The notes under the pieces were generated by a model. It worked only from the letters and a program-made list of their open reading frames with translations. It made no database searches and was not told the DNA's origin. 64,000 nucleotides of DNA. It comes from Macrostomum lignano (taxonomy: Eukaryota). Made by a program: the position numbers and the translations under genes. Below are positions 5,145-64,000 of this stretch, one piece after another; position 1 is the stretch's first letter, and each line of letters opens with the position of its first letter. Where the stretch lies: NCBI GenBank assembly GCA_002269645.1, contig NIVC01003531.1:28643-92642 (forward strand). The letters run 5' to 3'.

Positions 5145-5793
5145 ACAAGGCGACAGGCAGTCTTGCCATTGAGGCATTTGAGAGCACAGAACTCAAAACT
5201 TCCGCCTCAACCGATGCGATCAATGCAACACTTGAAGGTCAATGTCGACAAGACGCCATTAAAAAGCAACAGCAAAAGCAGACGAAAAAGCAGACGAAAA
5301 AGCAGATCTTCCATTTTAAAAAATTCATCCCAAAACTGAGCAGCAGCCCCTGCCAAACTTTTTATTGATGCGTGTTTTTTTAGCCAGCAAAAATAATTGT
5401 AAAAAAATATGTTTATACTAAGCAAATGCCAATTTGCAGGAATTGGTGCGCAGCAACACCTGGGGAAATAACATTCTTGCTGGGAGACATTTTAGCTAAT
5501 AAAATAAACCAATTGTGACTGAAGAATTAAATGACAATTAAATGCCAAAAAATGATAAAATTTTAAACGACTGTCCGAACTCAACAGAGCCTGCAGTACA
5601 CAGTATTTACACTGGCATATAGCTAATAGGAGTACAGATTTGTTGCCAGAACATATGCCTTGAATAATTAGTTAATAATTACCTATGGCTGCCGATAGAA
5701 ATGCACCTGTGATTTTGTTAAGAAGCTTGCATGCTATAGCTAGTAGACTTTAGTACTAATTCGTAAATAACTAGATAAATATACACAAACGGG

Positions 5794-6046
<253 letters not shown>

Positions 6047-6060
6047 GCAGTCCAAGGCTG

Positions 6061-6681
6061 TCACTCGCTCTCGCTGTCACTAAAAACCGCTGTTCTCCTC
6101 CTGGCGGCAGCCGCTGCTCGCCGTTTGCTGCCGCCGCGTGCGGCGCCCGACGGTCCGGCGCCATCAGCTGCCGGAGCGGCCGCAGCAGCAGCAGCCGCGT
6201 TGGCGCCACTGGCCGCCGCGCTGGACCGCTTGCGCCGGTGGTGCGCCTTCTTGGCGGCCTTCTCGGCGGCTTTCTCGGCCCGCTCCATGGCCTCCTCGTT
6301 GTCCACCTGCTTGAGGTGAAACTCCTCGATCTTGGCGTTCAGCTCAGCCAGGCAGCCGGCGAGGTCACCAGGGCCTCCGCCGGCGGCAGCGGCTGCGGCA
6401 GCGGCGGCGGGGCCCTGAGGCGCGGCTCGGCCAGCGTTGGCGGCGATGGCCTTGAAGCAGTTGTACACCTCGGTCTCGTGCAGCTTGTCAGCCAGAGTGC
6501 AGATGTGCTCCAGCAGCTTGCGCAGCATCCGCTCGCTGTAGGTCATCAGGTTCAGGCAGTAGGCGAAGTCGCGCCACTGCCGGGGCTGCTCGGCGCTGCG
6601 CAGGCGGATGCACAGCTTCTCCACCAGCTGCTCGCAGTGGCGGTCGCCCCGGATCAGGGGGAACAGGAAGTCGCAGATTTC
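6061..6681 (-). CDS. NCAPD2: NCAPD2 exon 11 (terminal)
   Basis: CAG|GAA acceptor; LVEKLCIRL..QWRDFAYCL; stop 6061-6063. Confidence 0.9.
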   Translation of the reverse strand, partial: EICDFLFPLIRGDRHCEQLVEKLCIRLRSAEQPRQWRDFAYCLNLMTYSERMLRKLLEHICTLADKLHETEVYNCFKAIAANAGRAAPQGPAAAAAAAAAGGGPGDLAGCLAELNAKIEEFHLKQVDNEEAMERAEKAAEKAAKKAHHRRKRSSAAASGANAAAAAAAAPAADGAGPSGAARGGSKRRAAAAARRRTAVFSDSESE

Positions 6682-44545: not shown

Positions 44546-44807
44546 CCAAACAAACAATACAACTAAACAATTATCAATGTGCAAATAAACAACGAACGAT
44601 ATGTTTTTATCTTGCATACAATATGTTTGTTAATTGTCTGTGTATTTAAAAAAGAAAACAAGTGAAATGTTTTTTAATGTTATAACGTAAAACGTTAAAA
44701 TCAATCAATGACCCCATCCATGACCATACGAATATCTATGGTGAAACTAGATCATACGTAGCTCGCTCGTATTTAATAGAACTTGTTACAACCAGAGAGT
44801 AGGTATT

Positions 44808-45113
44808 AGTAGTATAGAAAAAGACGCTTCTAGACCCAGAGCACTTTTTTAATGACCGTTTTAAGGGTCTAGAGGGGGGACACGGGGGGGTAAATAAAAA
44901 AACACATCTAAACACCCTTAACACATCTAATCACCCATAATCACCCCTAACAATAAAAATCACTTCCCAACACTTCCAAACACTCCCCAACACCCCCCTC
45001 GCGTCCCCCCTCTTAAGACCTTACAAACGGCCATTAAAATAAGGTCTGATCTAGAAGCGTCTTTTTCTATACTACTACTCTATAACCCCCTGCCCGCGCC
45101 GCAGGCGCGAAGG
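44808..45113 (+). repeat. left TIR (~306 bp)
   Basis: Reverse complement of the right end with a few differences; the exact outer boundary (44808 vs 44794) cannot be checked without the right terminus. Confidence 0.85.
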
Positions 45114-45485
45114 GGCACAGTCTGACCCAAACTGAGTCATAGAAAAGGAACAGTGTTTAACTATCTTAAAGCAGCTCACAAAAAGAAAAACTTTGCATGA
45201 TCACCCCAAAGGGTCGCAGACAGTCTAATGACTAACGCGGGAATTCGGGGTTTCTATTATACTCATCATTTACCGAAGCGCAAACCTCAGACTCAAACTG
45301 GCTACAACGGGAAGGTGAGTTGCTTACTCATGAAAAGCGCTTTTATTATTTTCAGCACTCCACCCCAAGCTTTAATTGTGTGTATAAGAATGATGAAATC
45401 TAAAAAACTAGCCACAGCAAATAGTCTCTTATTTATGCACAACTCCTAATATCTGTCTTTTACAAGAACTAACAAACGTATTATC

Positions 45486-46373
45486 ATGGCATCATCGAAA
45501 GAAGCAAGGATATCATCTATTGTCGAGATTGCTACGAATTTATCAAGGAAGGATAAGTCATTAATTGGTTGCCGACTTAAAGACTTCTCGGAGAAGGAAT
45601 TGGAGGCCTTACATGATAGTTTAGAAAAGTTGGATGGGGTGAGTGAAAAGAAGCCGACCACCCAAAAGAGGAAAGAGAAAGGTTATGTGGAGAATGTGCT
45701 AGAGACAATCTATCAGAAGTTAGAGGAGAACGAAGATAGAGGAGTTAGTGTGTGCGTGGAAGCGATTACACAAGGCCTATCCCACGTTGGTCTCAAGCTT
45801 GAAGGTACGACCAAACATGATTTGATTGAAAGATTTAAGAAAATAAAGTCATCTATTGAAGCTCTATCGATTGCTAAGGCAATGATGCAATTTGAGCAGG
45901 GTAGACTTATCTACTATTTAAGCACGAAGTATCGAATGACAGAGCGAGAGCTGGCCGACTCATTCAACATAACCAGCCGGAAGGTTGAGGATTATAACAA
46001 ATACTATCAACTCTGCCTTGACTACCCAGGTTTAATTTTTTCTACCTATTCAATGGGCATAGTAATTAATTATAGTGCTGCGATTTGCAAGAAGGCAAAC
46101 AACGATGCCAGGTTTAAGGAACTTCTCAAGATGCAACACGAGACAGTTGCTTTGGTTTTGAAAGATGGCAGTCCTGAAGAAAAGCAAGTTCACCAGTGGT
46201 ATGAAGACAGTAAGTGATTGCTTCACTATTGTGGTAATGTAAGTAAGTTCATATTTTTTAAAGCTTGCTTTTATATTGTAGCTTTCAACGAAGATCCTGA
46301 CGCGGAAGACAAAGCTGAGAGCGCCGCCGAAGTCCGAGAGATGTTCGAAGGAGGAAAATGGGTTAAGAAGTAA
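45486..46373 (+). CDS. uncharacterised Polinton protein with an HTH-like segment; probably spliced (exons 45486-46209, 46282-46373)
   Basis: 243-aa ORF; MTERELADSFNITSRKVEDY resembles an HTH; GTAAGT donor at 46210 and TTTTATATTGTAG acceptor at 46281 join an in-frame 30-aa tail. Confidence 0.6.
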
Positions 46374-46817
46374 ATAATTTGCGTGCTATTTCCATAACTG
46401 TTAAACTGACAATCTTTTTAGTGCATACATGAATTTTTCTCATAGCTTAGAAAAAATCATGTGTGTGTGTGCACCAAACCCTTTTAGTGTATACATGATT
46501 TTTTCTAAGCTATGAGAAAAATTCATGTGCTGTTATAGACACAATGCACCGAGGATAGAGAGAAAAATGGCCATTCATCGAATAAAAAGCGTCCATTGTG
46601 CTCCAGCGGAGCAGGCCATTTGTGCCATCGGGCACAGCCCGCGAACCATAGGTTCATTTTTGGATAGAGAATCTTTTGTGTTTGCGTCTTCTTTATTTTC
46701 TATACAAAAAAGAGTAAAAAAGAGCTATAAAATAAAACCGCTCGAGATGCTTGCACACTACCCTTTTCTTTAGTGTCTGCAACTTAATTTTTCTGTTACT
46801 AAAAATAGAACAAAAAA

Positions 46818-47227
46818 TGACACACGTTACACATATGCAAAATCTGAACGAATTGCAGGTAGGAGACCCAGTTGAATACCGAGGTGAGGGGCTTTTTGAT
46901 GTGGTTGGTACAGCAGCGAATTTCGTTAAAGACAATATGGGTCTTATAGGCCAAGCAGGCTCTGCAGCAGGTTCTATAACAAACGCTGTAAAGGGCGGAA
47001 TCGAAGCAGCGAGGGCAGTAGAAGAACTAAAGAAATTGAGAGAATTTAACGACACCCTCTCACAAATAAAAGCAATAAAAGATTTGAAACTAGCGCAGGA
47101 AACAACTCAAGCTGCACAACCAACAGAAACCCCCACGAAAAGCACACCAATAAGTAATAAAGATATTCAGGATTTTAATAAAATGTTAACCACAATTAAA
47201 GGCGGAAAAGGATTAAAGAAATTTTAA
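46818..47227 (+). CDS. small virion/core-like protein with GxG motifs
   Basis: AAAAATG start; YRGEGL and IKGGKGL resemble adenain cleavage motifs. Confidence 0.6.
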
Positions 47228-47237
47228 CAATATAAAA

Positions 47238-48197
47238 ATGGACTCAGTTAATGACGAAAAACGGCTATATTTTATAGGAGAAATTGTAGATACTTTAAAT
47301 CTAGACGATAATAAACATAGTCACGCAATGTTAAAAAGATTGGATCGCTTAGGTAAAAAATTTGACTACGACATCAATACATTTAAACTTGCTGCGAAAT
47401 ATGCACAAGAAGGAAGACCAATATCCTTTAAGAATCATGGTAGAAATTATAGGCTGACAGACTCCGATGTAAAATTTTTATTGGAGACTCACACTAAAAA
47501 GGACGGCGGGTTGTTACCCATTTTACCAATTCTTTTAGGACTTGGGGCAGCTGGAGCAGCTGGTTTAGCAGGAAAAAGAATTCATGATAACATAAAACAG
47601 TTAGGAGAATTAAAAGCAAAAGAAGGGGGTATATTACCCCTCGCAACTTTGCTCCCAATAATTTTTGCAGGAATTGGAGCAGCTGGAGGAGTCGCTGGAG
47701 GAGCGGCTGGAATTGCAAAAGCAGTAAATGACAAAAAAGCCGCGGATGAAAAAGCCAAAAGAGAGGCCGAATTTCAAAGACAGCAAATAACACAGGACGC
47801 ACAATTCAAACAAAAACTTATAGATACAATTAATAGTAGCTCAGCAACAGCAGAACAAAAAAGAAATGCAGAAGCTAAATTAGCAGCTGGAAAAGGTTTA
47901 ATTTTAAAAGGAACAACCCAAGGAAGTGGAGTTGTCGCAGATAAACTACATGAATTTGGCCAAACTTTAGAAAAAACGGGTGAGAAAGCTAAAGGATTTT
48001 TTGACAATATTGGATCCAATTTTAGGCCAGCAGTTCAGAAGATTTTTACTAAGTTAGGAAAAGATTTTAATATCATTGAAAAACACGACGGAAGCGGATT
48101 ATATCTCGAAATGCGACCAAAAGCAGGTTCAGGAATTTTCTTAAATTCAAACGTTATGGGAAATGGATTGCTATTACCAAAAGCAGATCTCGAATAG
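47238..48197 (+). CDS. core/membrane-active protein with two adenovirus pX(mu)-like hydrophobic motifs
   Basis: KDGGLLPILPILLGLGAAG and KEGGILPLATLLPIIFAGIGAAG resemble adenovirus pX GGILPLLIPLIAAAIGA; several GxGL/I motifs. Confidence 0.65.
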   Translation: MDSVNDEKRLYFIGEIVDTLNLDDNKHSHAMLKRLDRLGKKFDYDINTFKLAAKYAQEGRPISFKNHGRNYRLTDSDVKFLLETHTKKDGGLLPILPILLGLGAAGAAGLAGKRIHDNIKQLGELKAKEGGILPLATLLPIIFAGIGAAGGVAGGAAGIAKAVNDKKAADEKAKREAEFQRQQITQDAQFKQKLIDTINSSSATAEQKRNAEAKLAAGKGLILKGTTQGSGVVADKLHEFGQTLEKTGEKAKGFFDNIGSNFRPAVQKIFTKLGKDFNIIEKHDGSGLYLEMRPKAGSGIFLNSNVMGNGLLLPKADLE

Positions 48198-48280
48198 GCT
48201 CCTGGGGGAGGGTCTGGACACCAAAAACACAAAATTAAAAAATCAATAATTCAAACATTATATAAATTTTATTCTATAAA

Positions 48281-51200
48281 ATGGAAGCAATTTTAGCTCA
48301 AATCGACAACCCTGAACTTAGAGCACAATTAATAGCTCAAATCGATGCACAACGAATTGCCGATAGGGCTGAAATAGAAGCAAGAATTAGGGCAGAAAAT
48401 GAGATACGTTTAGAAAGACAATTAAATGATATTAATAACCCCCAACCACAAGGACAAAATGGAGCTGAAGTAATATATATAGATATAGATATAAATACAA
48501 ATTATAAAGAATATTTTAAACAAATGAAAGATAAATTAAAGACCATATTAAACAATTATACTATAAGGCCAAATAACAAACGACAGCCAATTAAGTATAA
48601 AATAGAAGTTGAAACAGAATTTAAAAAACCAAATATTCTTAATGCAAATTCAGAAATTGAAGTAATAAATAACTTTTCACAAGAATCATATAAAACATTA
48701 TTATCAATGGGAAATTACAACAATCAATTCGATCAAATAGAAGCTGAGTTTGATGAATGGATAGATAAGATGACAGAAAACGGATCTGGGTTTATATTTG
48801 TTCATGTAATTCAGCAACAGTAAAGATTGCACCATAGAAATTCTTAAAGGACGATCACATATGAAGCTCAAATTTAAATCACCTATGATTATAAATCCAG
48901 ACAATAAAGATAATAAATGTTTATTATGGTGTTTATTAATTCATAAATATCACAATCAAGTAGAATCACACATTAATAAAATATATAATTATAGACAATA
49001 TGAGGATGAAATAATAATGAAAAACATATCATACCCAGTAGCAATAGATGATATATATAAGATTGAAAAAATGAATGGTTTAAATATTAATGTGTTTACA
49101 ATTGAAGAACCAAAAGATCTAGAAGAAATTTTAACCGATCCAGAATGGTATAAGAAAAGGTGTTATCTTGTTAAGCCAGCAACTGATATAACAGCACCAG
49201 ATCAAATCGATCTTTTGTACATGCAGCGCGAAAATGAAACACATTATATATACATAAAAGATATTAGTTCTTTTTTAAGAGAAAATAGAAATAGATATCC
49301 ACTATGTAGAAATTGTTTTACATTTAAAAAGGATGAAACAGCTCTTAAAAACCACCAACGATTTTGTTTAGATCACAAATTTACTAATGCTATAATGCCA
49401 GCATCTGAAGATGCAACCCTAAAGTTCCAACAACATTATATGGCAGTTAAAAAACCAATAGTAATATATGCTGATTTTGAAGCAACAAATGTTCCCTTAA
49501 AAGAATCACAGACGGTATCTGATGACGGTGAATGCAATGCACAAAAAAATTGGCACAACAGTTTCCGAATAGTTATTGTATATATGTACACTCTGTAGCT
49601 GATCATATATTTAAATCAAGGATGATTACTTACCACGGTAATGATGCAGCTAAGCACATGGCAGAATCATTAGTAAATGTATTTGAATATATTCAAAATC
49701 AATATGATAAATTATCAAAAAATATTAATATGACAAATAAGGATAGAGACAATTATAAAAATGCAACAAATTGTTTTATGTGCAAAAGACATTTAAGTAA
49801 GAATAATAAGATACGAGAACATTGTCATCTAACAGGAAATTATCGAGGGGCAGCATGTAGATCATGTAATGCAAAAGAAGGAAAAGGATGTAAGGAAATA
49901 CCAGTATTTTTTCATAATGGTTCCGGATATGATTTTCATTTCTTAGTTCGAGAATTGCTTCATTTAGGAAAGGATGAATATGAAATAAATATATTACCTA
50001 AAACATCAGAAAATTACATATCAATAACATATGGTAAGAAATACTCCCATCTAGTTTTTCTAGATTCCTTGAGATTCTTATCAACATCTTTAGCAAATGT
50101 TGTTTCATCATTAGTTCCAAAACCATGGGATTTAGAAATAGTAAAGAAAAACTTTCCAATCTATTGAATCGTTTCAAAAAAGAAAAACTATCCGAGGAAG
50201 AACTAATGCTATTAACTCGTAAGGGCATCTACCCATATGAATATGTAACATCTGAAGACGTATTTTTCATACCGAATTACCCCCAATTGAAAAGTTTTAT
50301 TCAACATTATCACAAACAAACATAAGTGAATCGGATTATGAACACGCTCAAAAAGTATGGAAATACTTTAATTGTAAAACATTTAAAGATTATCATAATC
50401 TATATCTTAAAGCAGATGTTCTCCTATTAGCTGATGCATTTGAAAACTTTAGGAATCATACATATGAGAATTTTAAAATTGATCCCGCATATTGTTTCAG
50501 TGCACCGGGATTAACATGGGCTTGTGGTTTGAAATACACAGATGTTAAGATTGATTTACTAACTGATCATGATATGTTGTTAATGATTGAGAGAGGAATT
50601 CGCGGCGGATTCTCGGGTGTACTAGGAGATAGATATACTAAAGTAAATAATAAATATCTACCAAATTATAATAAAAAAGAAAAATCATCATATGTATTAT
50701 ATCTAGATGCAAACAATTTATACGGTGGTTGTATGAAACAAAAATTACCAATAGCTGATTTCCAATGGGAAGATGACCCCGATTATTACAAAAATATTCC
50801 CGAAGGAAGGGGCTGTATCGTAGAAGTGGATTTGCAATATACTCGGGAAGCAAAAGCAAAAACATATAAATATCCTTTAGCTCCAGAGCATTGTTCAGTT
50901 AATGAAGATGATTTATCACAAACACAAAAAGATTATCTTAAAGCAGATAATGCAAAACATCTAGCAACAAAAAAATTAATATTAAATTTACATGATAAGA
51001 AAAACTATGTAGTGCATTATAAGCTTCTACAATTTTATGAAAAGCAGGGATTAAAAGTGTCTAAAGTACATCGAACAATATCGTTTATTGAGGAAGATTG
51101 GTTAGCTAAATATATTGACTTTAATTCAAATCAGAGACAGATGTCAAAAACAAATTTTGAGAAAGATTATTGGAAATTAATGAATAATGCTTTTTATGGA

Positions 51201-52245
51201 AAAACGGTTGAAAATATTAGAGATAGAACCCAATTCCATTTAGAAAAGGATATTGATAAAGCAAAGAAATATTTCTCAAAACCTAACTTTAAAGACTTTA
51301 TAAAATTTGATGATAACTTTATGGGTATTCATATGAGAAATAAAACAACAAAATTTCTTAAACCAATATTTATTGGAATGGTTGTTTTAGATTATGCAAA
51401 GCTGGTAATGTATGAATATTATTATGATGTTATAAATAAAACATGGCCAGATAACTATCCAATATATGCAGACACCGACAGTTTGGTATTTAAGGTTGAA
51501 ACAGAGGATCGGGCAAAGCCGCGAACCAAAGGTTCGATGTCTATAAAGATATGGAAAAAATTAAGGATACATTGGATACCTCCGACTATCCGGATAACCA
51601 TCCTTTAAAATCAGATCAAAATAAAAAAGTTGTACTTAAAATGAAAGATGAATTAAATAGCAAAATCATAACCGAGTTTATAGCAATAAGATCAAAATGC
51701 TATGCATTTAAGTTTTAGGACAGGAGGGAGAGGTAAAAAAAATAAAAGGGGTATCAAGAGCAGCAGTAAAAAAGATAACATTTGATGATTATAAAAACGT
51801 ACTTTTAGATTACCTTAATACAATTGAAAATTATCATGCTCCACAATATCGATTAAATTCAGATAAGCATCAGATGTTTGTCATCGAGACAGATAAAAAA
51901 ACATTAAGTCCATTTGATGATAAAAGATATTTAGATGATAAAATTAAAACATATCCATATGGTTTAAAAGAAGAGATAAAAAATATGATAAAAGATAAAA
52001 AACAAAAAGAAGATATAATAAGTAAATATAATGAATACAAAGCGGCAATAAATAATTATTATTACGATTGTGATTGTGAATCCGAATGTGATTGTGAATA
52101 TAATACATTTCTAGAATATGAAAAAGATATAGATAATTATTATTCAACATTTCCAAAAGAACTTAAAAAATTAAATAAGGAAAAAGTCTTGAATAACTGG
52201 AAGAGATTAACAGAAAAATTACTTATCGGGTCTGTAAAAAACTAA
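48281..52245 (+). pseudogene. polB: protein-primed family B DNA polymerase (pPolB), frameshifted in this assembly
   Basis: REHCHLTGNYRGAACRSCN, FHNGSGYDFHF, FLDS, RKGIYPYEY, YLDANNLYG, KLMNNAFYGKT, YADTDSL, FDDKR found in order across several frames. Confidence 0.95.
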
Positions 52246-52578
52246 AGCATGTAATTGTTTGAGCAAATCATTAACTTCAATTTCATATATTATTGAGCAC
52301 CAATTATCCTCACAGTCGGCAGGGTAACTTAAACAATCCTTTATTTTTTTCCTAAGTTTTTTTATTTTTCTAACCAATCTATCTATTTCAATTTCAATTA
52401 CTATTTCAGCATAAACAATATCTTGTCTTAAAAAACGTTTTCTTTTATCTATCTCATATCGGATGGGAAACATATCGTCCCCATACTCATGATATTTCTG
52501 AGATATAATTATATTTATTTTTTTATTAATATCATTAAGTTCACGCTCTTTAGTGATAAGGATTTTTATCGTATCCAT
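52219..52578 (-). CDS. hypothetical protein, 119 aa
   Basis: ATG ORF with AAAAATG context. Confidence 0.55.
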   Translation of the reverse strand: MDTIKILITKERELNDINKKINIIISQKYHEYGDDMFPIRYEIDKRKRFLRQDIVYAEIVIEIEIDRLVRKIKKLRKKIKDCLSYPADCEDNWCSIIYEIEVNDLLKQLHALVFYRPDK

Positions 52579-52593
52579 TTTCTTATAAAAAAT

Positions 52594-52926
52594 TTAGTCT
52601 TCGTCGTCATCCTCCCAAACAGCCGCCAATTTTACAGTCCTATCACTCTTTTTATTATTTGTTTGTTTTAGTTTAAATTGCAATCCACCCTCGTTGCAGT
52701 ATTTCATAACAAACGCTTTAGGTTTATTAATAACTAAAACAGGAAAATTTTTAACATCATCTCCGCTTAGACATAAAATTTTTTGCCCATCTAATTGTAA
52801 AAATATTGATTGAAGCCCAATAAATTTAACCTGTCTCAAACATATAATATTATATTCTTTATTCTCCAACATATTGGGTGTGAGATAATTAATCACATTA
52901 GAATCGGTTTTGAACCAGCTCTCCAT
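52594..52926 (-). CDS. hypothetical protein, 110 aa
   Basis: AAAAATG context; acidic tail. Confidence 0.55.
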   Translation of the reverse strand: MESWFKTDSNVINYLTPNMLENKEYNIICLRQVKFIGLQSIFLQLDGQKILCLSGDDVKNFPVLVINKPKAFVMKYCNEGGLQFKLKQTNNKKSDRTVKLAAVWEDDDED

Positions 52927-52952
52927 TTTTAATCTAAAAAAATAACAAAAAA

Positions 52953-53435
52953 ATGAAAGACATTTATGTTTGTAATAAATGTAATGTGACTATGCACAGA
53001 GGGCAAACAGCAAACGGAGATATATATCATATGTGTTATTCATGTTCTAAAATATATCAATTTGAAAAAACAAAAAAGATTGAAAACTCATATTACTATT
53101 TTAAAAACACAATTTTAAGAAATCTTACAAGAGACATTTCTGATCCAATTTTAATTCCCGGAAATAATGTTTATTTATATAATAACTTTTTCCATTTAAA
53201 TAAAGGAAAGGGATTAAGTTCGAAAGACTCCGAAAGGATTTTAATTTTAGTTGGATATTATTTCAATTTTCTTATTCGAGAGAATACAAAGTTTATAAGG
53301 ATAGGTAACATACCTAACGAAATGTTACTGAAAAAGTCATTGGAATTTTTATGTATTGATAAAAAATTTAAACCTAGGATCAGAAGAGAGTTACCACTTT
53401 GGGAAGAATATATAACATATGCATTAAAAAACTAA
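52953..53435 (+). CDS. hypothetical protein with an N-terminal CxxC..CxxC zinc ribbon
   Basis: CNKC..CYSC; AAAAAATG start. Confidence 0.55.
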   Translation: MKDIYVCNKCNVTMHRGQTANGDIYHMCYSCSKIYQFEKTKKIENSYYYFKNTILRNLTRDISDPILIPGNNVYLYNNFFHLNKGKGLSSKDSERILILVGYYFNFLIRENTKFIRIGNIPNEMLLKKSLEFLCIDKKFKPRIRRELPLWEEYITYALKN

Positions 53436-53495
53436 ACAACCTGAAGTTCTACAGCACTTCCTGACCGCGGGCTTTGTGCCCCAGTAGCAATAGTT

Positions 53496-54081
53496 TCAGG
53501 TTCGTAAATGCCTAATGTTTCTATCGGTGGAGCTTTGGGTTTGTCCAAACTCTTTTAATTCCATATCGGTAAAAGTTTCAACATCTAAAATTCTATTTCT
53601 ATCTTTTAAATATTTTTCATATAATTCAACCGCGGTTGATAATTCATGAATCGTTATCTCTCCGTCATCCAATATTTTTTGCACATATAAATATAATTGA
53701 TTTTTATATTGTTGCAACATCTCTTAATGATTTATATTTTTCCTTTCTTTTTTTAAGATATAATTTAATTGCTAAAAGTATTGATAAGTTTCTGATCAAT
53801 TCAAAACCTGATATTGAGCCAATTGAAATACCTAAAAATAATTGAGATAAATTAAGAGTTGGAATAGATTGTAAAATACCTAAAACGATTACACATAACA
53901 TTGATAAGCTTCCAAATCCAATATTGAAAAAATCCATATTTCTTATATGGTTTGAAACTCTTCTTACTTTTTTAGTATATAAATCATAATCATAATTTAT
54001 TCGATCAACATTACTTAACATCTGACCTTTACGTTGGTTGAACCGGTCGCGTTCCCATTTATCTGCTTCAGATACCGACAT
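53496..54081 (-). CDS. two-TM membrane protein (53704-54081), possibly continuing into 53496-53720 through a frameshift
   Basis: Two hydrophobic stretches, FFNIGFGSLSMLCVIVLGIL and LFLGISIGSISGFELI. Confidence 0.5.
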
Positions 54082-54394
54082 TCTCGTCTATTTTTAATAG
54101 CACCAAAATGAATTCCCCACGCTCTTTGGGGATTTGTCCCGAGCTCAATAGGTATTGTATTGGAGTTATTCTTTCTTTTTTCTCCCATTTAAATCCTATT
54201 TTCCAAAACTCTTGAAGTATAATATGATTTTTTAATAACTTAATTAATTCTTGAAGCTTCTTATTATCCTGAACATTTACAGTACTAAATAAAAATTTGG
54301 TATGAGATTTGAATGTTTTTATATTTGATTCTTGTTTAGGAATAGGAATAATAACATTATTTTGCCGCATCGATGGAGTTCTACTAAAAGCCAT
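54068..54394 (-). CDS. hypothetical protein, 108 aa
   Basis: ATG ORF. Confidence 0.55.
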   Translation of the reverse strand: MAFSRTPSMRQNNVIIPIPKQESNIKTFKSHTKFLFSTVNVQDNKKLQELIKLLKNHIILQEFWKIGFKWEKKERITPIQYLLSSGQIPKERGEFILVLLKIDENVGI

Positions 54395-54409
54395 TTTATA
54401 TATAAATAT

Positions 54410-56451
54410 TTAAGTTATTTCGGTTTGTGGCCGTTCCAAATATGCGGTCGCAGCAAAATCATATCCTGCTGATGTGCTACCACAAACGGCTGCACCACGA
54501 ATAAAATGTGCAGCATCCGATCCTCCAGTTCGAGCACCAAAACCCATAAGAGTTCCCGTTTTATCTAAATCTCCCCAAGTTCCGCTATCATATGTAAAAA
54601 AGTTTTGCCCAATTAGCGTATATGTATTAGCTGATACATTGTATGTGCTTATTTGATACCAAACTCTTTGATTTAAAATATTAATTTCAAAAAGATGCCA
54701 ATCGCCGTTATCAATATTAGCATAGGTTATAGTTTGATCTGCGTCATTAAGAACATCATTACGAACTGTTGCTCCGTCTGATTTTATATTGCTCCAAACA
54801 ACCCCAACTCTATCATGCCATTCACTCGCAAACACAATCAAGCCGGCGCGGGTTGTTAACCCGGATCCAAATTCACTTGTTGGACGTTCGTGACAATATG
54901 CATAAAACCAAACAGCGTCAGCACCATCTCCTGTAGCATTAGCAACTCGGAAATAGAAGGAGGCGGAGATATTACGAAAATGGGTGAAATTAAATTGCAA
55001 CGCTCCAGACTGACCACTTGCTTCATCAGTAATTCTAGCTCCATTTTGATAATCAATATAAGTAGCGTTACCAACAAAACTTCCAGTTGGAAAAATATCA
55101 CCGGCTGTGGTTGGGTTTTGATATCCAGTCCAATTGCAAATTACAGGCTCGTACAAAGCGGCATCGATTGCAGGTATTCCATCCAATTTTATTTTATCGT
55201 TAAAAGACATTCGGCCATCCGCCGTTTGTGTTACTCGCGTATCAACATAACCTTTAGTAACAACAGAACTGTTATTGTTTATAGTAGAGATATTAGTAAT
55301 TGTATTACCTCCCATATCAATTGATTGATTAACCACTCCCAAATTTAAATCAAGAATTGTAAACGTCTGTCTATAAATCTGGAAGGTTGACAGACCCGGG
55401 TTGGTTGAACCCGAGTTGATGTAAGACAGAACAATCTGAAATATGAATATGTTTTATCAAAATTTTGTGTGACATTAATTGTTTGAGTTGAGTTATTTAT
55501 TGCTACAGAACTATCCGCAGGTATTAATACGTCCCAACTTGTATTGTCATTACTTCCCTCAAATCGCCATGATGCTGGGTGCTCGGTTGAAGGTGATGGC
55601 CTACCACGTAAATCAATTTTATAACACATTATTGCGGAAGGGCATTGGACTTGAATCCAATAATCGGTTTGAGTATTATTTGTTGCCCAATCTGTTGAAT
55701 CATTTCCATCAAACGCTTTCCAACTTGCAAAATCAGTTGTATTAAATGCAGTGCTTGCGGTTATTGCAAAACCATTTCCACTCCAATCTGCCATGGTAGG
55801 TATGTGACCAGTTTCAACCGTTTGGAATCGATCCTGCTTTAAGGCTCCACCCCAACTAAATTATCAACCTCCGTTTTGGTATAGGAATCAGTTATATCTC
55901 TTTTTAAATTTAAGGAATTATCAACTTCAGTTTTGCTATAAGAATCAGTTATATCTCTTTTTAAATTTAGGGAATTATCAACTTCGGTTTTGGTATAGGA
56001 ATCAGTTATATCTCTTTTTAAATTTAGGGAATTATCAACTTCAGTTTTGGTATAGGAATCAGCAACATTCTTTTAAATTTAGGGAATTATCAACTTCAGT
56101 TTTGGTATAAGAATCGGCCGTATTGCGTTTTAAATTTAATGAATCATCTATTTGAGTTCGAGAATAAGAATCAGTTATATCTCTTTTTAAATTTAACCCA
56201 TTGTCAACCTCTGTTTTTGTATATGAATCGGCTACGTTCCGTTTTAAATTTAGGGAATTATCTATTTGAGTTTTGGTATAGGAATCTGCAACATTTCTTT
56301 TTAAATTTAGTTTAGTATCAACTTCACTTTTTTTATAACCTTCATCTTCATTAATATATCGGTTATCTCCGAATGTAACACTTATTCCACCAGAAGTACC
56401 ACCACCAGTACTTGATGTTCCGTTCCATGAGGGTGTTCCAGAAAATAACAT
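54410..56451 (-). CDS. fibre-like protein (~680 aa reconstructed): 19-aa repeats, F5/8-C discoidin domain, shaft motif, L-type lectin-like domain; three frame breaks
   Basis: YTKTEVDNSLNLKRN repeats; ASWKAFDGNDSTDW..WIQVQ..WRFEGSNDNTSW; IDMGGNTITNI..VTKGYVD; GQSGAL..GDGADAVWF..GDWHLFEI. Confidence 0.8.
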
Positions 56452-56461
56452 TTTTTACTGT

Positions 56462-57112
56462 CTATTTTATAGAGTCTAAAATCATCTTAAATACTTCGGG
56501 GTTTACACGAGCTTCATTCGAAAGTCGATATAAAAAATACAACGCCGCCTGCCCGCAATAACTTTTATCAAATGTTTGAAATTGTTCGTGATGATCTCCA
56601 CATAAACGATTTTTAGTATGATTAAATTTATCTTTTATTTCCTGTAACGGAGGAAGCGCGTATGAATCAAAAAAATAAACAAGTTTTGGTTTTGAATAAA
56701 CTGCTGACCAATGAACACCATTTTCTTTTGTTGTTTCAATATTAACAATGAAAGATCCATATTGTGGTAAGTCTTTTATCTCATCTCGCATAACACATCT
56801 GAATGGTTTTATTTTTAACTGCCGCGCCCAATTTGTTAATTCGATATTGCTTGTTGTGTCTGTTCCATATCTTTGTTTAAAATCATCCCACGTCATGGTC
56901 ATTTTATGTTCCTGAAAAACTTTGGTTTTAGTTAGTTTCGTAGGTGTGGGTTTTAACAATTCCTTTCTTATTTTATCAGCTTGTAACTGCCTTAATTTTG
57001 CTAGTTCTAGTTCGTAATTATCTTCAGCTTTTTTAACTTTTTCTGATTGTTTTTTTAGTAAATTATTATTATTATCGTGCTTTGCACGCGAACATGTTGT
57101 TCGATTACCCAT
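56462..57112 (-). CDS. adenain-like maturation cysteine protease (PRO)
   Basis: GVHWSAV, YFFDSY, QFQ..SYCG catalytic H/D/Q/C order; protease domain begins near MTMTWDDF. Confidence 0.9.
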   Translation of the reverse strand: MGNRTTCSRAKHDNNNNLLKKQSEKVKKAEDNYELELAKLRQLQADKIRKELLKPTPTKLTKTKVFQEHKMTMTWDDFKQRYGTDTTSNIELTNWARQLKIKPFRCVMRDEIKDLPQYGSFIVNIETTKENGVHWSAVYSKPKLVYFFDSYALPPLQEIKDKFNHTKNRLCGDHHEQFQTFDKSYCGQAALYFLYRLSNEARVNPEVFKMILDSIK

Positions 57113-57153
57113 TTTTACTATAGGAAACGGACAAAGTCCGCGAACCTTCGGTT

Positions 57154-57934
57154 CTAAACCTGTTTTATACGTAAAATTACTGTTATTGATTGCCCACCAA
57201 AACTTATTAATCTATCGCTTTCATCTACAATCCTAATATAAATTGATTGAACATTATATTGATTTAATGGGTAATATATTGGGGTTTGAGGTGAACAATC
57301 ATTTTCTCTCCAATTGGAACAGCAAGAAATGGGATTGAATAAATAATTCCACGTTGAACCAAAACTCCATTATTATCTGTTATATAACCACCGTTTGAAT
57401 GTCGGTTGTTATATTAATTGTATTACTCCACCCTCATATTTCCAACTGTATCACCGGTGCTTGATGTGGTAACTATTCGGGAATTAAATCCAAGTATGGT
57501 TCTGAGTGAATTTGCAATTGTGAAATCAACCTGATATCCGGATCCTAGTGATAGTGTGAATCTGCCAGACGGTAAATCAACACCTATAACAATTGCTCCT
57601 GCTACCCAATCACCATTAGTTGTTAATTCTCCTTCTATATAAGCATTCAAATCAGTATAGCTATACGCTCCTGGGTTAACGCTAAATGTTGTCCAATTGG
57701 CTCCGGAATCTTTAGAATATCTAAATTGATTATTTGTTGCATTAATTAATTGAGGCATGTTAAAACCGAAAATAGTATTAAACCTATTTGATAACTTAGG
57801 CTTTGATCAAGTTGTAATGGATCGCGCAATTGAATCCGTTGCTCGCTGGTTGTCATTATAAACTGTAATGTTGTACTAAATTTTGAATTAGTTCGATCTA
57901 CCAATTGTTTTATAGTATCTAAATTTGTAGTCAT
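57154..57934 (-). CDS. minor capsid protein (penton-like), frameshifted
   Basis: NNQFRYS..PGAYSYTDLN, NSLRTILGF and C-terminal IRIVDESDRLISFGG; position between ATPase and PRO. Confidence 0.8.
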
Positions 57935-57936
57935 TT

Positions 57937-58746
57937 TTATAGTGGGAAATTATTGCTATGTCTCTCTTCCTCATTATCTTCTTTTATCAAATTTGTTAAA
58001 ATTCTATGTTTCCTTTCTAACCTCGGATTGATATAAATATGTTTGTATTGGCTATCATCCCAAATTTTTTTACACATACTTTTAAATGGTTTTGCATCCA
58101 ACCGGGATTAAATCTAGCGTGTATATTTTGTAAATCATAATTATCTAAATCAAACATTACACAACAACTAGCATTCTTTTTTATAATCGATTCTAATTCT
58201 CTAAAGGATTGAGTAAGATAAAAAGCTCCAATTCCATCTCCTCTACCACTAACAAAAATTTCCTTTTGCAATTCTTGATCACCGTCATTAATACAATCAT
58301 CAAAAATAATTAGTGTTTTATCATGTTTTGGAATTTGATCATAGGCTAATCGGGTTGATACTCTAACAGTTGGGGCTCGATCGGACGAAGTCCGCGACCC
58401 TTCGGGCGATCGTGATGTTTTCTGGCTGTTGTGCCATTGTTTTACATAAATCCTCAATGTCTGCTAGATTAAATCGCGGTTCGTCATCATCCTCATATTG
58501 CTCATATGCTCTTAACATTCTAAACAAGACATCTTTTTTTAATTTGTTTTTTAATCCATGTTTAAGAAATTCATAATATTTTATTCTAGGTTTATTAGTA
58601 TAAATTATTAAATTATTATAGTCTAACATTCCATCTGTTGTTAATAAATCGTAAACAAAGTGTGTTTTTCCTTTACCTGATCCTCCGATTACTAAACAAA
58701 GAAAAGGATCATTTGGAAATATCTTATCGTGTTTTGCCTTTACCAT
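57937..58746 (-). CDS. A32/FtsK-like packaging ATPase, frameshifted
   Basis: Walker A GGSGKGKT, Walker B LIIFDD, SGR..YLTQS. Confidence 0.9.
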
Positions 58747-58797
58747 TTTTAAAGAAATAATTTAAATAGGCGCGACGGTCGGAGACCTGCACTCATT

Positions 58798-60266
58798 TTA
58801 CAATGGCGCGTCCCGAACAATCGTGCCATCAGCTTTAGCAATTGACATATATTCCTCTAGAAACAATACGTGGGCGTCAAGTGCCTGATTACCGGTTTTA
58901 TTAATCTCTAACATATAATTAAGTCCAATATTGGCTACGTTTTCTTTCTGTGCCGTTAGATCATAAACAACCACTGGATGAATGTTTAGAAACTCTGTGG
59001 GTGTGTACTGAGGGACGGCATACGCTTCATTTTTGGCATAATCTTGATAATATTTTATAAAATCATTAACATTATTATTTGCTATATTTAATTAGGGTCT
59101 TTAACCGGATAATATTGATCATCAACCTGCAGGCGGATATTCTGAACATTAAACTCGTTAATAGCTGCAGCCGCATTGTCTGTTGCGGTGGCTGCTTGTT
59201 CTGCTATGGCACCGGATTGAAGCCAATATAAATCCCCATTTGCTCTTTTACTCCTTCTATTTGTTATCTTAAACCAAACAAAAATATATCTCACCCGACG
59301 TTTTGATGTCAGTATTTGCCACTGGAATGAATCCTGGTTATTATTAATGGTTCGCATAAAATGTCGACGATTCAAATAAAATATTTCCTGATCATGCGTT
59401 AACTGATTATCGATGTGTTTTAAAAGTGGGGCTGTTACCTCAATAGTTGGTACGACTAATTGAATTGAATCTATACGAACTGCTATATCGGTTGAAATTG
59501 AGGTTCCATAAAGTATCCTAGGCTGATATCCACCAGATATTTGCAACTGTATCCCAAATTTTAATCCTTTCCATACCCGATTTGGTGAGAAAAACCCAAA
59601 TAGTGGAAAGATTGAAAAGTCCTGCTCATATGCTGTTGCTGTGGTTAAAACCGCGACTGGGAATTTATTCTGACGATCTATAAAACCAGTATTAATATCT
59701 TTTGTATTAGTCATAGTGGTTACAACTGGAACTATGTTTGTATTAAGGTAAACAATTAGCGCTGCAGTATCTGCACCGGCTGCGTTTTGTACATTAGGGA
59801 AAACTACTGCTTGACCGTTACCTTTATCCGGCATCCACCCAACATTATCACCAACTTGTTTTGATAAATAAGTATAATTTAAATGTTTCAAAACTCCATT
59901 AATCTCTGCGGGGTTTGATGATGTCTCAACCTCAGCACCATTAACAGTTAGTTGAGCTTGGGAAAAACATTTATAAAACCAATCATTTTCTATTATTATT
60001 CCGGATCGATCTGCGATATCTCCGGCTGCAAGAGCAGTTCCATCATTTCTAGTATACAACCATCTAACGCGGAAAAACGCATTTTTCATATCCAATATAG
60101 TGTTGGTTGCGCCGATGTCAAAAGTTACCGTTCCAGTAGTAAAGTTATTTGAATTATCACTTGTTGGTAGGGTATAATTTAAATCTCTTGCTCTGACCTC
60201 ATTAATATACTGTCGGTGCTTTTTGAAATGAAATTTATCACTCCACATAGTTTTTGTTTCAGCCAT
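58798..60266 (-). CDS. major capsid protein (double jelly-roll, hexon-like), ~490 aa; one frame break near 59086
   Basis: ILDMKNAFFRVR, FSQAQLTVNGAEVE, RVRYIFVWF, IRLQVDDQYYP, then FLNIHPVVVYDLT in the next frame. Confidence 0.85.
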
Positions 60267-60300
60267 TTTTTTAAGTTAAAAAAGTTTTTTATGTTAAAAA

Positions 60301-60969
60301 ATGAGTCAATTTATGGACGTTGATGGAGAGTTAGCGATTTATAAAGAGAAGCAAAGATATTCTGATTTTGTTAGAAATTTACAAAAAAGAAAGTTAGGAA
60401 TACAATTAGCTGGTGAAAGATTTGCTGCTCCTTTTGTTAATCCTATTACTGGGAAAATTAGTGAACTAGAAAAAACAGATAAAGATCTTCTGGAAAAAAT
60501 TGCTAAAAATACTGAGCCAAAAGAGGATGAAATTTTGGATGAGCCGCCTGCTTATGATGTTGATCAAGCTCAATTGAGAGTTGCAGAGATTAGGGCTGCA
60601 GAAAGGGGTGGAGTTGATGAATATCCGAGAGCTGCACCAACTAGTATTGCTGTGACAGATTTAGGTAATAATAATTATCGAATTGGTGGAGTTGATAAAA
60701 ATCGAAATGAACTATATAGAGAATTGGGCGGAGCATATAATATTGTTATGAACCCTAGGGTAAAATTTAACCCTGATTATATACTAGGGATGAATTAGTA
60801 AGTGCAAAAATTTTTTATGATGAGTTAGGAGTAAGAGCTGTAAAAATACCAGCTTGTATAAAAGGATTGTTAATTCTATAAATAACAAACCAGCTGTTGG
60901 AGAAGGATTTAAAACACCGCGAAAACTTGTTTTAGCTGCTGCGAAAGCTGCTGGACATACTGGAGTTTA
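60301..60969 (+). CDS. conserved uncharacterised Polinton protein, frameshifted near 60790
   Basis: 165-aa ORF plus a downstream frame ending VGEGFKTPRKLVLAAAKAAGHTGV. Confidence 0.55.
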
Positions 60970-60997
60970 ATTAATTGTTAAATTTATTTTTTATAAA

Positions 60998-61542
60998 ATG
61001 GAAACTAAAAAGATTTGTAGTCGATGTAAAGAAGAGAAACCAATGACTAAAGATTTTTTTAGATGGAGAAATGATTCAAAAAAATTTAGAAATGATTGTC
61101 GATCTTGTGAGAAAGTTATATCAAAACTGTGGAATAAAAACAATAAAGAATATATAAAAAATAAATATCACACTGATGAAAATTACAAACTTATTATCAC
61201 CTCACGAAATAGAATAAATCAACTATTAAAATCAAATAATGCTCGAAAAAATAATCATACTATTGATTACCTTGGTTGCTCAATTGAATTCTTTATTGAT
61301 TGGTTAAATTTCACAAAACATTATTATGTTCAAAAGACTATGGTGGTGCTTTACATATTGATCATTTTATTCCTGCTTCTTCATTTAATTACAAAGACGA
61401 AGATCATATGAAAAAGTCTGAACATTGGACAAATAAAAGATACTTAGCTGCTATTGATAATAAAACTAAATTTGTTAAACAACCAACAATTGAAGAATTT
61501 GCAAAACAATTGGTGCTATCATGTATTTTTAAGGCTATAAAA
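60998..61542 (+). CDS. HNH-family endonuclease (NCLDV/phage type), one frame break near 61330
   Basis: N-terminal CSRC..CRSC, YLGCS..F, HIDHFIP..F..EHWTN....DN..K. Confidence 0.8.
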
Positions 61543-62368
61543 ATGAGCAATCATGCGACGCATGCGAACCAAAGGTTCGATCGACGAAGTCCGCGTTCCT
61601 TCGAACGATCAATTAGTATTTGAAGGAGGATTTTAGATGTTCAAAAAGGATTAACAAGCTTACCACCAATATTTACTACTGGGAGGTATACGGGTGAGCT
61701 ACACCTACCATCAATGAACTTCACAGGTTATCCCGTGGCCTGAGTGAGGAAGGCAATGTCCTTGCTAGTCACTATTTGTGGCGACATCTCCAAATTGCGT
61801 GAAACCCGTCATACAGCTTCAAGTACCACTTCAATTGAGAAATCTTTTGAAGGAACAGAGGTAACTCCTCTTCCCAAAGGTAAAAAGCTTGAAGACATGG
61901 TGGCAATGCGCAGCCAAGCTCCTAAGTATTTTAAATATAAGGAGAAGGTTCAGAGAGCAGACGGAGATGGGCGGTAATTATCGCCGCTTAAGGTGTGCTC
62001 CAGCCTCTTTCGAAAGATTGAGGGTAAACTACCCGGCACTCGCTTAGATTTGAGATTAAATCCTGACAATACTCCAAAATCTGATTCAATTCCAATAAAT
62101 GGGATTGATTGGTTAGCATACTATCACGACTTAGCATATAGAGATGCTGACAAGAACCCGCCGAGGAAGCATTAAGATTAAAACATGAAGCCGATCAAAA
62201 AATGATTCAAGGATTAGATAACTTGCAGGGATTATCGGTAGGTCAAAGATTAACTAGGTGGATGGTTAAAAAGATTTGCAGTCTAAAGTTAAATTTGGTT
62301 TGGGAATTAATTATAATCAACATGGAAATAATTGTGTCGAGTGTTTATTATTAAGTGGTTGTTGTTAA
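61543..62368 (+). CDS. parvovirus-type phospholipase A2 protein (PLA2X-like), interrupted by a group I intron (exons 61543-61728, 62032-62368), with frame breaks
   Basis: Spliced sequence reads GELHLPSMNFTG|PGT..PINGIDWLAYYHDLAY: Ca-binding GPG loop and catalytic HD..Y. Confidence 0.85.
61729..62031 (+). ncRNA. group I intron, subgroup IC1-like, ORF-less, 303 nt
   Basis: P1 CAGGU/GCCUG with U.G at the 5' splice site; P3 CATCTCC/GGAGATG; P AAATTGCGTGAA and Q AATGCGCAGC; P5abc with GAAA tetraloop and A-rich bulge; P7 G(A)GAGCA/TGCTCC; P8; P9.0 AG/CT. Confidence 0.9.
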
Positions 62369-62379
62369 GTGGGGAGGTT

Positions 62380-63178
62380 ATGTTCATGATTCTTCATAAA
62401 GAATATCGAAAACCTAAATTTTATAGAAAAATCATGAACTTCAAAAAGAATGAAATTTGGTATGCTGATTTAATGTCGATGCCGAACGAAAGAGGATATA
62501 AATATATCTTAACCATATTAGATGGTTTTACTCGATACGCGTGGGCTGTTCCTTTAAAATCCAAAAAGGGAGAGGAGGTTGCTGCTGCTTTTAGAAGTCT
62601 TGGAGAAAAAAGCGAAAGTTGTGTGTTGATGAAGGAAAAGAATTTTACAATCCTCATATGTATAAATTGTATCATTTTGAAAAAGGAAAAGAAAGGAAAA
62701 AAGACGCGAATGGGGAGTATATTAATAAAATTTATTCTATTTATGGAGAGAGTAAAAACGCATTAATAGAAAGATTTAATCGAACTTTAGGTAAGAAATT
62801 ATGGTTTCAGTTTAGTCTTAATGGTAACCAAAAGTGGGTAAAAATATTACCAGACGTAGTGAAAGATTATAACAATTCATATCATTCGGCGATAAAGATG
62901 ACTCCTCAACAAGCTTATAACAATCCTGAAAACGTTAAAGTTACTTTTGGAAAATTTGAAAAAAATAAAAAGAAATCTTTTAAGGTTGGTGATTCTGTTT
63001 ATATCTATAAATGGAAAGATAAGTTTGAAAAGGAAGAAAAGGATATTGGAAGATAAGTGAGAAATTTACTATCAGTAAAGTTTTAAATACCAATCCTACA
63101 ACCTATATAATTGCTGATAAGGACGGTGAAGAAATATTGGGTTCGTTTTATGAGAACCAACTAATATCAGCGAACTAA
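62380..63178 (+). CDS. retroviral-like (rve) integrase, two frame breaks
   Basis: WYADL..YKYILTILDGFTRYAWAVPLKSK, VDEGKEF, IERFNRTL, YNNSYHSAIKMTP, FKVGDSV. Confidence 0.95.
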
Positions 63179-63217
63179 GTTCGAAAAGTTACTTGAGACA
63201 ACATGGTAGTAAATTTT

Positions 63218-63412
63218 TTATACAAACAAAAACAATATTATTACTATAATTGTTACTAATATTATTATTGACATTTGTTCAACTGTTATCAAACTTAAAT
63301 TTTCATTAAGTTCATTAATTGGAACATTTCCGATGTAGGAATAGTTTACCTTCATTTTTTTATATATATTTTTCACAATAAATGTCGTTTCTGTTATAGA
63401 ATAATAGTTCAT
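63218..63412 (-). CDS. small protein with a C-terminal TM helix
   Basis: 64 aa ending MSIIILVTIIVIILFLFV. Confidence 0.5.
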   Translation of the reverse strand: MNYYSITETTFIVKNIYKKMKVNYSYIGNVPINELNENLSLITVEQMSIIILVTIIVIILFLFV

Positions 63413-63428
63413 TTTTTAAATATTTTTT

Positions 63429-63743
63429 TCACATAAAAATTTCACTTTCATTCTCTGAATCGCTGGTTTCATATGAACTATTTGTTGATTCGGAATCTGT
63501 TGATCTAACCTCCCAATCATCCGAATTTAAATAATCTCCAAGTTGAAATATTAACTCACCCTCTTGTTCTAAATCATACATCTCATCTAGCTCTAATGGA
63601 TAAAGTTTTAGGTCGTGCTTGTCGTCATATTTTAAATAAACTTCATCAATTATTCCATTCAAAATATGTTGTTTTATTATCTCTGCATTTTTAGCAACAG
63701 TCTCAAAAGTATCACTAACAGAAAAGGTGTAAACTCGGGTCAT
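63429..63743 (-). CDS. hypothetical acidic protein, 104 aa
   Basis: AAAAATG start; Ser/Glu/Asp-rich tail. Confidence 0.55.
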   Translation of the reverse strand: MTRVYTFSVSDTFETVAKNAEIIKQHILNGIIDEVYLKYDDKHDLKLYPLELDEMYDLEQEGELIFQLGDYLNSDDWEVRSTDSESTNSSYETSDSENESEIFM

Positions 63744-63762
63744 TTTTAGTAACAGAAAAAGA

Positions 63763-64000
63763 CCTTCGCGCCTGCGGCGCGGGCAAGGGGTTATAGAGTA
63801 GTAGTATAGAAAAGACGCTTCTAGATCAGACCTTATTTTAATGGCCGTTTGTAAGGTCTTAAGAGGGGGGACGCGAGGGGGGTGTTGGGGAGTGTTTGGA
63901 AGTGTTGGGAAGTGATTTTTATTGTTAGGGGTGATTATGGGTGATTAGATGTTTTAAGGTGTTTAGATGTGTTTTTTTATTTACCCCCCGTGTCCCCCTC
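63763..64000 (-). repeat. right TIR (truncated by the window end)
   Basis: Reverse complement of 44872-45113. Confidence 0.95.

Follow-up and report, generated by a model that had tools for sequence, protein, structure and literature searches.

A group I intron in the PLA2-integrase gene of animal nuclear Polintons and its candidate homing nuclease

We describe a group I intron that interrupts a PLA2-integrase gene of Polintons in animal nuclear DNA, where it is probably part of a spliced, mobile intron system. We identified the intron in a 64-kb stretch of DNA (the window, meaning the whole stretch analyzed), in which it forms a plus-strand insert of 303 nt at positions 61729-62031 that is ORF-less and has A as its last base. 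The PLA2-integrase site is occupied by an intron in at least 122 places, spanning two distant Polinton families. The window features that support this description are as follows.

44795-64000 (left end approximate), no strand assigned: host Polinton, which runs on to the contig end
60998-61620 (end approximate), plus strand: nuclease slot, with an HNH-like gene in pieces in the window and a PD-(D/E)XK gene with the same boundaries elsewhere
61543-61728, plus strand: exon 1 of the PLA2-integrase gene, broken by a stop at 61621-61623
61724-61742, plus strand: P1, in which exon CAGGU pairs with guide GCCUG (61738-61742), with U.G at the 5' splice site
61795-61948, plus strand: P4-P5-P5abc-P6ab scaffold, with an A-rich bulge (61882-61886), a GAAA loop (61839-61842), and a receptor-like P6a/b
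61953-62001, plus strand: P7 (61953-61959 with 61996-62001, including G61955-C62000), the 3' strand of P3, and P8
62002-62031, plus strand: P9.0 and one P9 hairpin with a GAAA loop, followed by the terminal A
62032-63180 (end approximate), plus strand: exon 2, with the remaining PLA2-like domain and the rve integrase, frameshifted, first stop at 62173-62175

The insert is almost certainly a genuine group I intron. In a covariance-model search, it matched RF00028 over the whole model with 64.2 bits (cut-off 50; E = 3.6e-15), and it was the sole group I match in the window. Helices P1, P2, P2.1, P3, P4, P5, P5abc, P6ab, P7, P8, P9.0, and P9 were defined by hand on the window copy, where all of them consist of standard pairs only, and the intron had a folding z score of -2.4 against 100 shuffles. 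The initial annotation had called the insert from its sequence at these coordinates, named its helices, and pointed to RF00028 as a check; the length, the model match, and the pairing all bear it out. Its proposed P1, with U.G at the 5' splice site, is present in the window and preserved in 16 of 18 aligned introns.

The P4-P6 domain of the window intron is of IC type. We take the IC1 class to be defined by a P5abc with A-rich bulge, a GAAA loop, and a P6a/b receptor, all of which the intron has, the receptor in a variant form. Across the alignment, the 3' strand of this receptor reads UAUGG in 10 of 18 introns and UAAGG in 7, the window among them, and it is damaged in 1. The likeness to the layout of the Tetrahymena LSU IC1 intron that had been claimed holds for this domain and fails elsewhere: the terminal base is A, J8/7 reads AAGGUG and not AAGAUA, and only P9.0 and one P9 hairpin lie between P7 and the intron end, with no P9.1 or P9.2. 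P9.1/P9.2 and P13, which we regard as features of Tetrahymena-type IC1 introns, are absent from the window intron. Five of seven P10 pairs form in the window copy.

The splice sites are supported independently of the fold. An intron-less homologue, P0001, which is 74% identical to exon 2, has an uninterrupted NFTG-PGT, and tblastn alignments with P0001 split at residue 32/33 in the intron-bearing copies, as expected if excision rejoins NFTG-PGT in the way first proposed. When the intron is read through unspliced, the frame hits a stop 4-5 codons into it.

The interrupted gene had been described as a PLA2 gene, with its rejoined sequence read from an ATG at 61714. It is indeed a Polinton gene with a PLA2 calcium loop, but the PLA2 is fused to an rve integrase rather than standing alone, and that ATG is internal to a reading frame that begins at 61543. 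Exon 2 is open for 382 codons in many other copies and contains PF08398 and PF00665 domains, with pieces of rve also found in the window itself. Because exon 2 joins the remainder of the PLA2-like domain to the rve integrase, the intron interrupts an integrase gene. PLA2-like and rve domains also occur in a single protein in 4 of 6 outside homologues. Only 3 of 30 copies have an open frame for an HNH-PLA2-integrase triple fusion, which we rejected as the usual form of the gene. In the window, exon 1 has a stop and exon 2 ends after 47 codons, so excision alone yields no full protein from this copy. Among the 30 nearest copies fetched, both exon frames are open in 18. Exon 2 has an internal Met near codon 57, ahead of the integrase domain; judging from its position, this Met could start the integrase without splicing.

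The host element is a Polinton/Maverick. It has pPolB pieces (PF03175, E = 5.8e-6), an rve integrase (PF00665, E = 2.6e-7), a packaging ATPase, and terminal inverted repeats at 44916-45113 and 63763-63959, about 19 kb apart. Capsid and protease genes are presumably present as well, which we assume from position and characteristic motifs, no Pfam family matching them. Within the element, we also observed a gene with an F5/8 type C (discoidin) domain at 55345-55794 on the minus strand (E = 1.5e-12), a 57-nt repeat at 55802-56414 in the probable fibre region, and a long hairpin at 46428-46527 that fell under the cut-off for two microRNA models. A special promoter motif ahead of the Polinton ORFs was discarded as a candidate, with 9 matches against a shuffle mean of 4.1 and maximum of 10. 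Elsewhere in the window lie a gag-pol retrotransposon ORF of 1287 codons (37554-41417, minus strand), pieces of another at 27985-30375, and many minisatellite arrays across 2000-21000.

We are highly confident that the intron-bearing elements lie in animal nuclear DNA, as had been claimed for the window. The 764 Mb assembly contains 86 Wnt matches and 35 Prospero-domain matches, in each case split up as animal genes with introns should be, and we take Prospero to point to a bilaterian. The bilaterian microRNA markers give this no confirmation: let-7 scored under its cut-off (42.4 against 53.5 bits) and miR-124 gave no match. The contrary possibility, that the elements come from a co-sequenced protist or virus or from a mis-join, draws on the many copies that sit on short contigs and on the window's own element, which runs off the contig end without a readable target-site duplication. 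We judge it highly improbable: other copies sit on contigs of 0.4-1.1 Mb, and three contigs (C952, C506, and C67) each hold a Wnt gene and an intron copy, about 23.5 kb apart on C952. Moreover, the window stretch is present in 20 sequencing runs from 6 studies, all of which bear one organism label. No RNA run was listed among those that contain it.

Of 4 runs (4 studies) examined, two had contigs that bridge the boundary between intron and exon 2. Four contig sets (X1, X10, X13, and X19, of 23 listed; none recorded as RNA) cover 29-30 of 30 bins, and their contigs show 10 joints, none at 61728/62032; a missing exon-exon joint is uninformative either way because contigs drop rare forms. One contig in run X13 skips 158 nt within 61895-62054 (depth 20.4), at positions that fit neither splice site.

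The count of at least 122 occupied places comprises 56 A-ending introns, 43 G-ending introns, and 23 copies with a second core. The 3'-end motif of the A-ending introns gave 62 exact matches (control 11), and 56 of these fall at a known intron end or exon 2 start. The G-ending motif gave 43 (control 0), divided by motif into 20 in the window's family (family A) and 23 in family B. Independent insertions are fewer than 122 because many Wnt genes also occur in 2-4 near-identical copies. Family B is a distinct Polinton, with a capsid about 25% identical to that of the window, another gene order, and a homologous intron at the same site that matches RF00028 with up to 91 bits. Two terminal-A motif matches 312 nt apart on C2757, which we had considered as a tandem intron, proved to be unrelated repeats.

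Uninterrupted PLA2-integrase matches made up 7 of the 117 scored. Five of the seven were fetched and all are intron-less, three in family A and two in family B, so that the intron-plus and intron-minus alleles that the initial annotation had suggested looking for in other Polinton copies exist in both families. For the exon variant carried by the window, a search for the exact junction without the intron gave 0 matches.

A second ribozyme occupies the same site in L052 (232-567, minus strand). Among 40 scored matches, it has 23 near-full copies at 93-100% identity. Over 133 nt, the L052 intron is 77% identical to the window intron, with P2, P2.1, and P5abc in common. Its core differs: P3, P4, P7, and P9 pair, yet RF00028 misses the intron at E = 0.1. 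The L052 core is one we take to be IE-like, and its 3' splice site is ambiguous. Further diverged relatives of this second core, at 74-75%, occur on C45, C114, and C2521.

We aligned 18 introns (the window, 7 others from family A, and 10 from family B), excluding L038 and L040, whose 3' boundaries were unmapped, and L052 for its different core. Among 96 pairs, 57 are invariant, 17 show two-sided change, 12 show one-sided change, and 15 fail to form in one or more copies. Pairing is retained in 95.3% of 1620 cells, compared with 35-45% when the partners are slid, a control that flatters the result, since the helix definitions come from the window copy and the aligned introns share ancestry. With two-sided change, 17 of 18 pair types stay paired, among them three each in P7 and P2, although these changes are not independent since the aligned sequences are related. 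The longer P8 of family B failed to align. The compensatory changes that had been noted in P7 around an intact G-C pair are evident between the families, with three compensatory pairs flanking the unchanged guanosine-site G-C (G61955-C62000 in the window), which 17 of 18 introns keep.

The guide and its exon also correspond. In 12 of 13 intron-bearing copies, exon 1 ends in CAGGU and the guide is GCCUG; in the thirteenth, L052, they are CGGGU and GCCCG. The end of exon 1 therefore matches its own guide in all 13, whereas a CAGGU end is found in only 2 of 5 intron-less copies. From pairs with at least 3 differences, pN/pS among intron-bearing lineages was 0-0.12 for the 52 exon 2 codons before the first Met; over the final 32 codons of exon 1, it was 0-0.51. 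Covariation and low pN/pS may, for their part, be older than the presence of the introns in this animal or stem from recombination with copies that lack the intron.

These data bear on whether the integrated introns are passengers that were active only during viral replication or in another host, and are now silent or unspliced, with integrase made from intron-less copies or from the internal Met. That Met, the open intron-less frames in both families, the broken window copy, and the nearest intron relatives found, which among the matches listed are in giant viruses, would all suit such a history. We nonetheless consider it unlikely. Intron-bearing copies dominate, many of the nearest ones keep both exon frames open, and the guide follows a synonymous change in its own exon. 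Groups of identical intron-bearing copies are spread across many contigs, from which it follows that these copies multiplied recently.

The terminal A sets the window intron apart from the terminal G expected of a group I intron. It occurs with three different exon 2 starts and in introns diverged by 6-7%, which show compensatory changes in P2, P5b, and P6b; for both reasons, the terminal A is not private damage to the window copy. The A-ending lineage could still be dead for splicing and non-autonomous, with proteins supplied in trans and only the G-ending introns functional. In favor of this reading, group I introns normally end in G, the G-C pair of P7 has not changed, P10 is imperfect, and J8/7 deviates in all 8 aligned introns of family A. 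Against this stand the spread of the terminal A to 56 places with several exon 2 starts and the compensatory changes just described. Among near copies, 12 of 22 that end in A and 6 of 8 that end in G have open frames in both exons, and Diderma L2066 ends in A and yet splices completely in vitro (PMC3679873). We therefore hold a dead lineage to be doubtful, though not negligible, and lean slightly toward the reading that the A-ending lineage of the window splices. The window copy itself is a decayed member of this ORF-less, A-ending lineage. Natural pairs of A- and G-ending introns at about 98% identity permit a clean test of 3' splice-site choice.

The introns of family B are 836-895 nt long, apart from one of 4065 nt in L042, where a 3.2 kb insertion without long ORFs lies inside the nuclease gene of the intron. 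Their ORF sits in the loop after the first arm of P2.1, extends into the core, and reaches 228-233 codons in only 4 of 10 introns. It matches PF09553 (E = 1e-6, above the cut-off). Its predicted model (pLDDT 90) has EcoO109I as the best structural match (Foldseek E = 8.8e-5; VIA Z 9.7, rmsd 3.7, 164 aligned), and the PD-(D/E)XK motif (E49, D65, E76, and K78) is invariant in 9 of 9 aligned sequences. The ORF encodes a restriction-enzyme-like PD-(D/E)XK nuclease with a putative homing role.

Free-standing homologues of this nuclease, 61-68% identical, lie directly upstream of the PLA2-integrase gene in family A. In the upstream slot, HNH-like and PD-(D/E)XK genes replace one another between identical endpoints (the window and L047, L048, L049, and L052-L056). 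Among the eight additional family A loci fetched, four have the free-standing PD-(D/E)XK gene and all four bear the intron; the other four, like the window, have the HNH-like gene, and three of them are intron-less. Because the HNH-like gene adjoins all three family A intron-less alleles, an HNH-like slot has no fixed link to the intron. The HNH-like gene has no Pfam match and reaches Atlas HNH clusters only at 0.87-0.89. By tblastn, it resembles giant-virus intron ORFs (E of about 1e-6 to 1e-9), with a weak match to an HNH_4-like intron ORF. In a nuclease tree, the free-standing and intron-borne copies form separate supported clades, with a midpoint root only, which gives no direction.

Outside this genome, 296 cluster representatives match the nuclease profile at E 0.001, and among the best 150 of these, a motif identifies 2 whose tails derive from the same intron core. 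The nuclease also reads into the same intron core in P0007, P0008 (a 30-member cluster, contigs up to 65 kb), P0009, P0039, and P0040. The intron therefore exists in other data sets. The outside sequences searched yielded no loci for the nuclease or for P0001.

The nuclease might instead be a free selfish enzyme, or one directed at competitors such as other elements or a helper virus, with the intron spread by reverse splicing or through recombination among copies. The nuclease folds like type II restriction enzymes, the slot exchanges two unrelated nucleases at the same boundaries, and the HNH-like gene adjoins intron-less alleles too. This account has a minority chance in our estimate. It leaves aside the placement of the PD-(D/E)XK gene inside the intron in family B and the outside homologues (P0007-P0009, P0039, and P0040) that continue into the same core. 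In addition, an upstream PD-(D/E)XK gene is found at 4 of 4 intron-bearing and 0 of 3 intron-less family A loci, a small sample. A nuclease inside the intron (family B) or just upstream of the interrupted gene (family A) is, by analogy, the layout of collaborative homing, with homing itself putative here.

Next to the insertion site, the last 10 codons of exon 1 (61699-61728 in the window) are densely recoded across copies, and some family A copies have an exon 1 end like that of family B. The recoding fits co-conversion or escape from the nuclease.

Taken as a spliced and mobile system, the intron is a mobile group I ribozyme that has colonized the conserved calcium-loop codons of PLA2-integrase in integrated animal Polintons. 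When an element is expressed, the guide would pair with the end of exon 1 to form P1, a guanosine bound in P7 would cut the 5' site, and ligation of the exons would restore the PLA2-integrase frame. The intron would home between Polinton copies, driven by the PD-(D/E)XK nuclease that it encodes in family B or, alternatively, spread in collaboration with the nuclease of the upstream slot in family A. We extend this only tentatively, at somewhat short of an even chance, to a live ribozyme-nuclease system in animal cells. In such a system, splicing would gate PLA2-integrase, introns with two cores and swappable nucleases would compete for one site, and the most numerous lineage would splice with a terminal A and a remodeled guanosine-site neighborhood. 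If the live system is real, a group I intron acts on a protein-coding transcript of an animal nuclear genome.

Nuclear group I introns are limited, according to two reviews, to rDNA (PMC3679873, PMC10964413), and animal group I introns are given in reviews only from non-bilaterian mitochondria and from a report on shark rDNA spacers (PMC10964413, PMC8393795). In a single animal assembly, more than 100 intron-bearing places within Polinton protein genes are exceptions in location to the rDNA-only rule. The Polinton introns provide a natural test for ribozyme splicing of protein-coding transcripts in animal cells, and both proposed stages in the birth of a mobile intron, with the nuclease beside it and inside it, are found in one genome with one nuclease family. 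The ribozyme is of a known kind; its setting is one that we did not find described. The literature searched, mostly open-access, with preprints and few subscription papers, contained no report of a group I intron in animal Polintons.

The nearest relatives found, among the matches listed, are giant-virus introns with 69-72% identity over 170-190 nt of the core. At least 122 viral loci have one core motif. The best viral matches listed sit in giant-virus genes for RNA polymerase, VLTF3, and capsid, where a nuclease ORF often precedes them. Searches with three intron motifs in viral contigs and with one in metagenome contigs returned 0 close relatives. Like the Polinton introns, giant-virus introns (IMG/VR L075, L106, L127, L103, and L058) have a nuclease ORF in their 5' part, and the HNH-like gene of the Polinton resembles some of these ORFs. 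They differ in their host genes and sites, encode GIY-YIG- or HNH-like rather than PD-(D/E)XK ORFs, and are too distant to be a direct donor. An exchange with protists or their viruses had been suggested. Sequence likeness to giant-virus introns fits such an exchange with the viruses of protists, or a pool shared with giant viruses, and names no donor.

The Tetrahymena rDNA IC1 intron Tth.L1925 (PMC3679873) shares with the window intron P1, P3-P8, P2/P2.1, an extended P5abc with A-rich bulge, a GAAA loop, and a receptor-like P6a/b. The Polinton intron, unlike Tth.L1925, lies in a protein-coding gene and is without P9.1/P9.2, and the window lineage has a terminal A and an altered P7 and J8/7. 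As for the host gene, adintovirus PLA2X likewise places a parvovirus-like PLA2 domain in an animal Polinton (PMC8502044). PLA2X has a pX-like tail, whereas here the PLA2 is fused to an integrase and split by an intron (PMC8502044).

The initial annotation had called an intron in an animal Polinton highly unusual. We found no animal report, but protist cases are already in print: one study reports group I introns in Polinton-like viruses of Rhodomonas lacustris, Paulinella micropora, and Desmodesmus armatus (PMC12220804). As here, those introns match RF00028, are of comparable size (309-376 bp), and reside in small integrated DNA viruses; the study describes them as confined to a handful of protist groups, and they lie in a short gene without annotation that precedes the capsid gene (PMC12220804). 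In our case, by contrast, the host is an animal, the gene is PLA2-integrase, and intron-less alleles and a candidate nuclease are present. Collaborative homing in phages, in which a free-standing endonuclease lies beside an ORF-less intron, is the closest parallel found to the nuclease layout (PMC3984707, PMC11296320). The phage systems likewise have a nuclease gene adjoining the interrupted gene, and a gene inside the intron is their proposed later state. Unlike in phages, both states of one nuclease family, with cleavage putative here, coexist in one animal genome.
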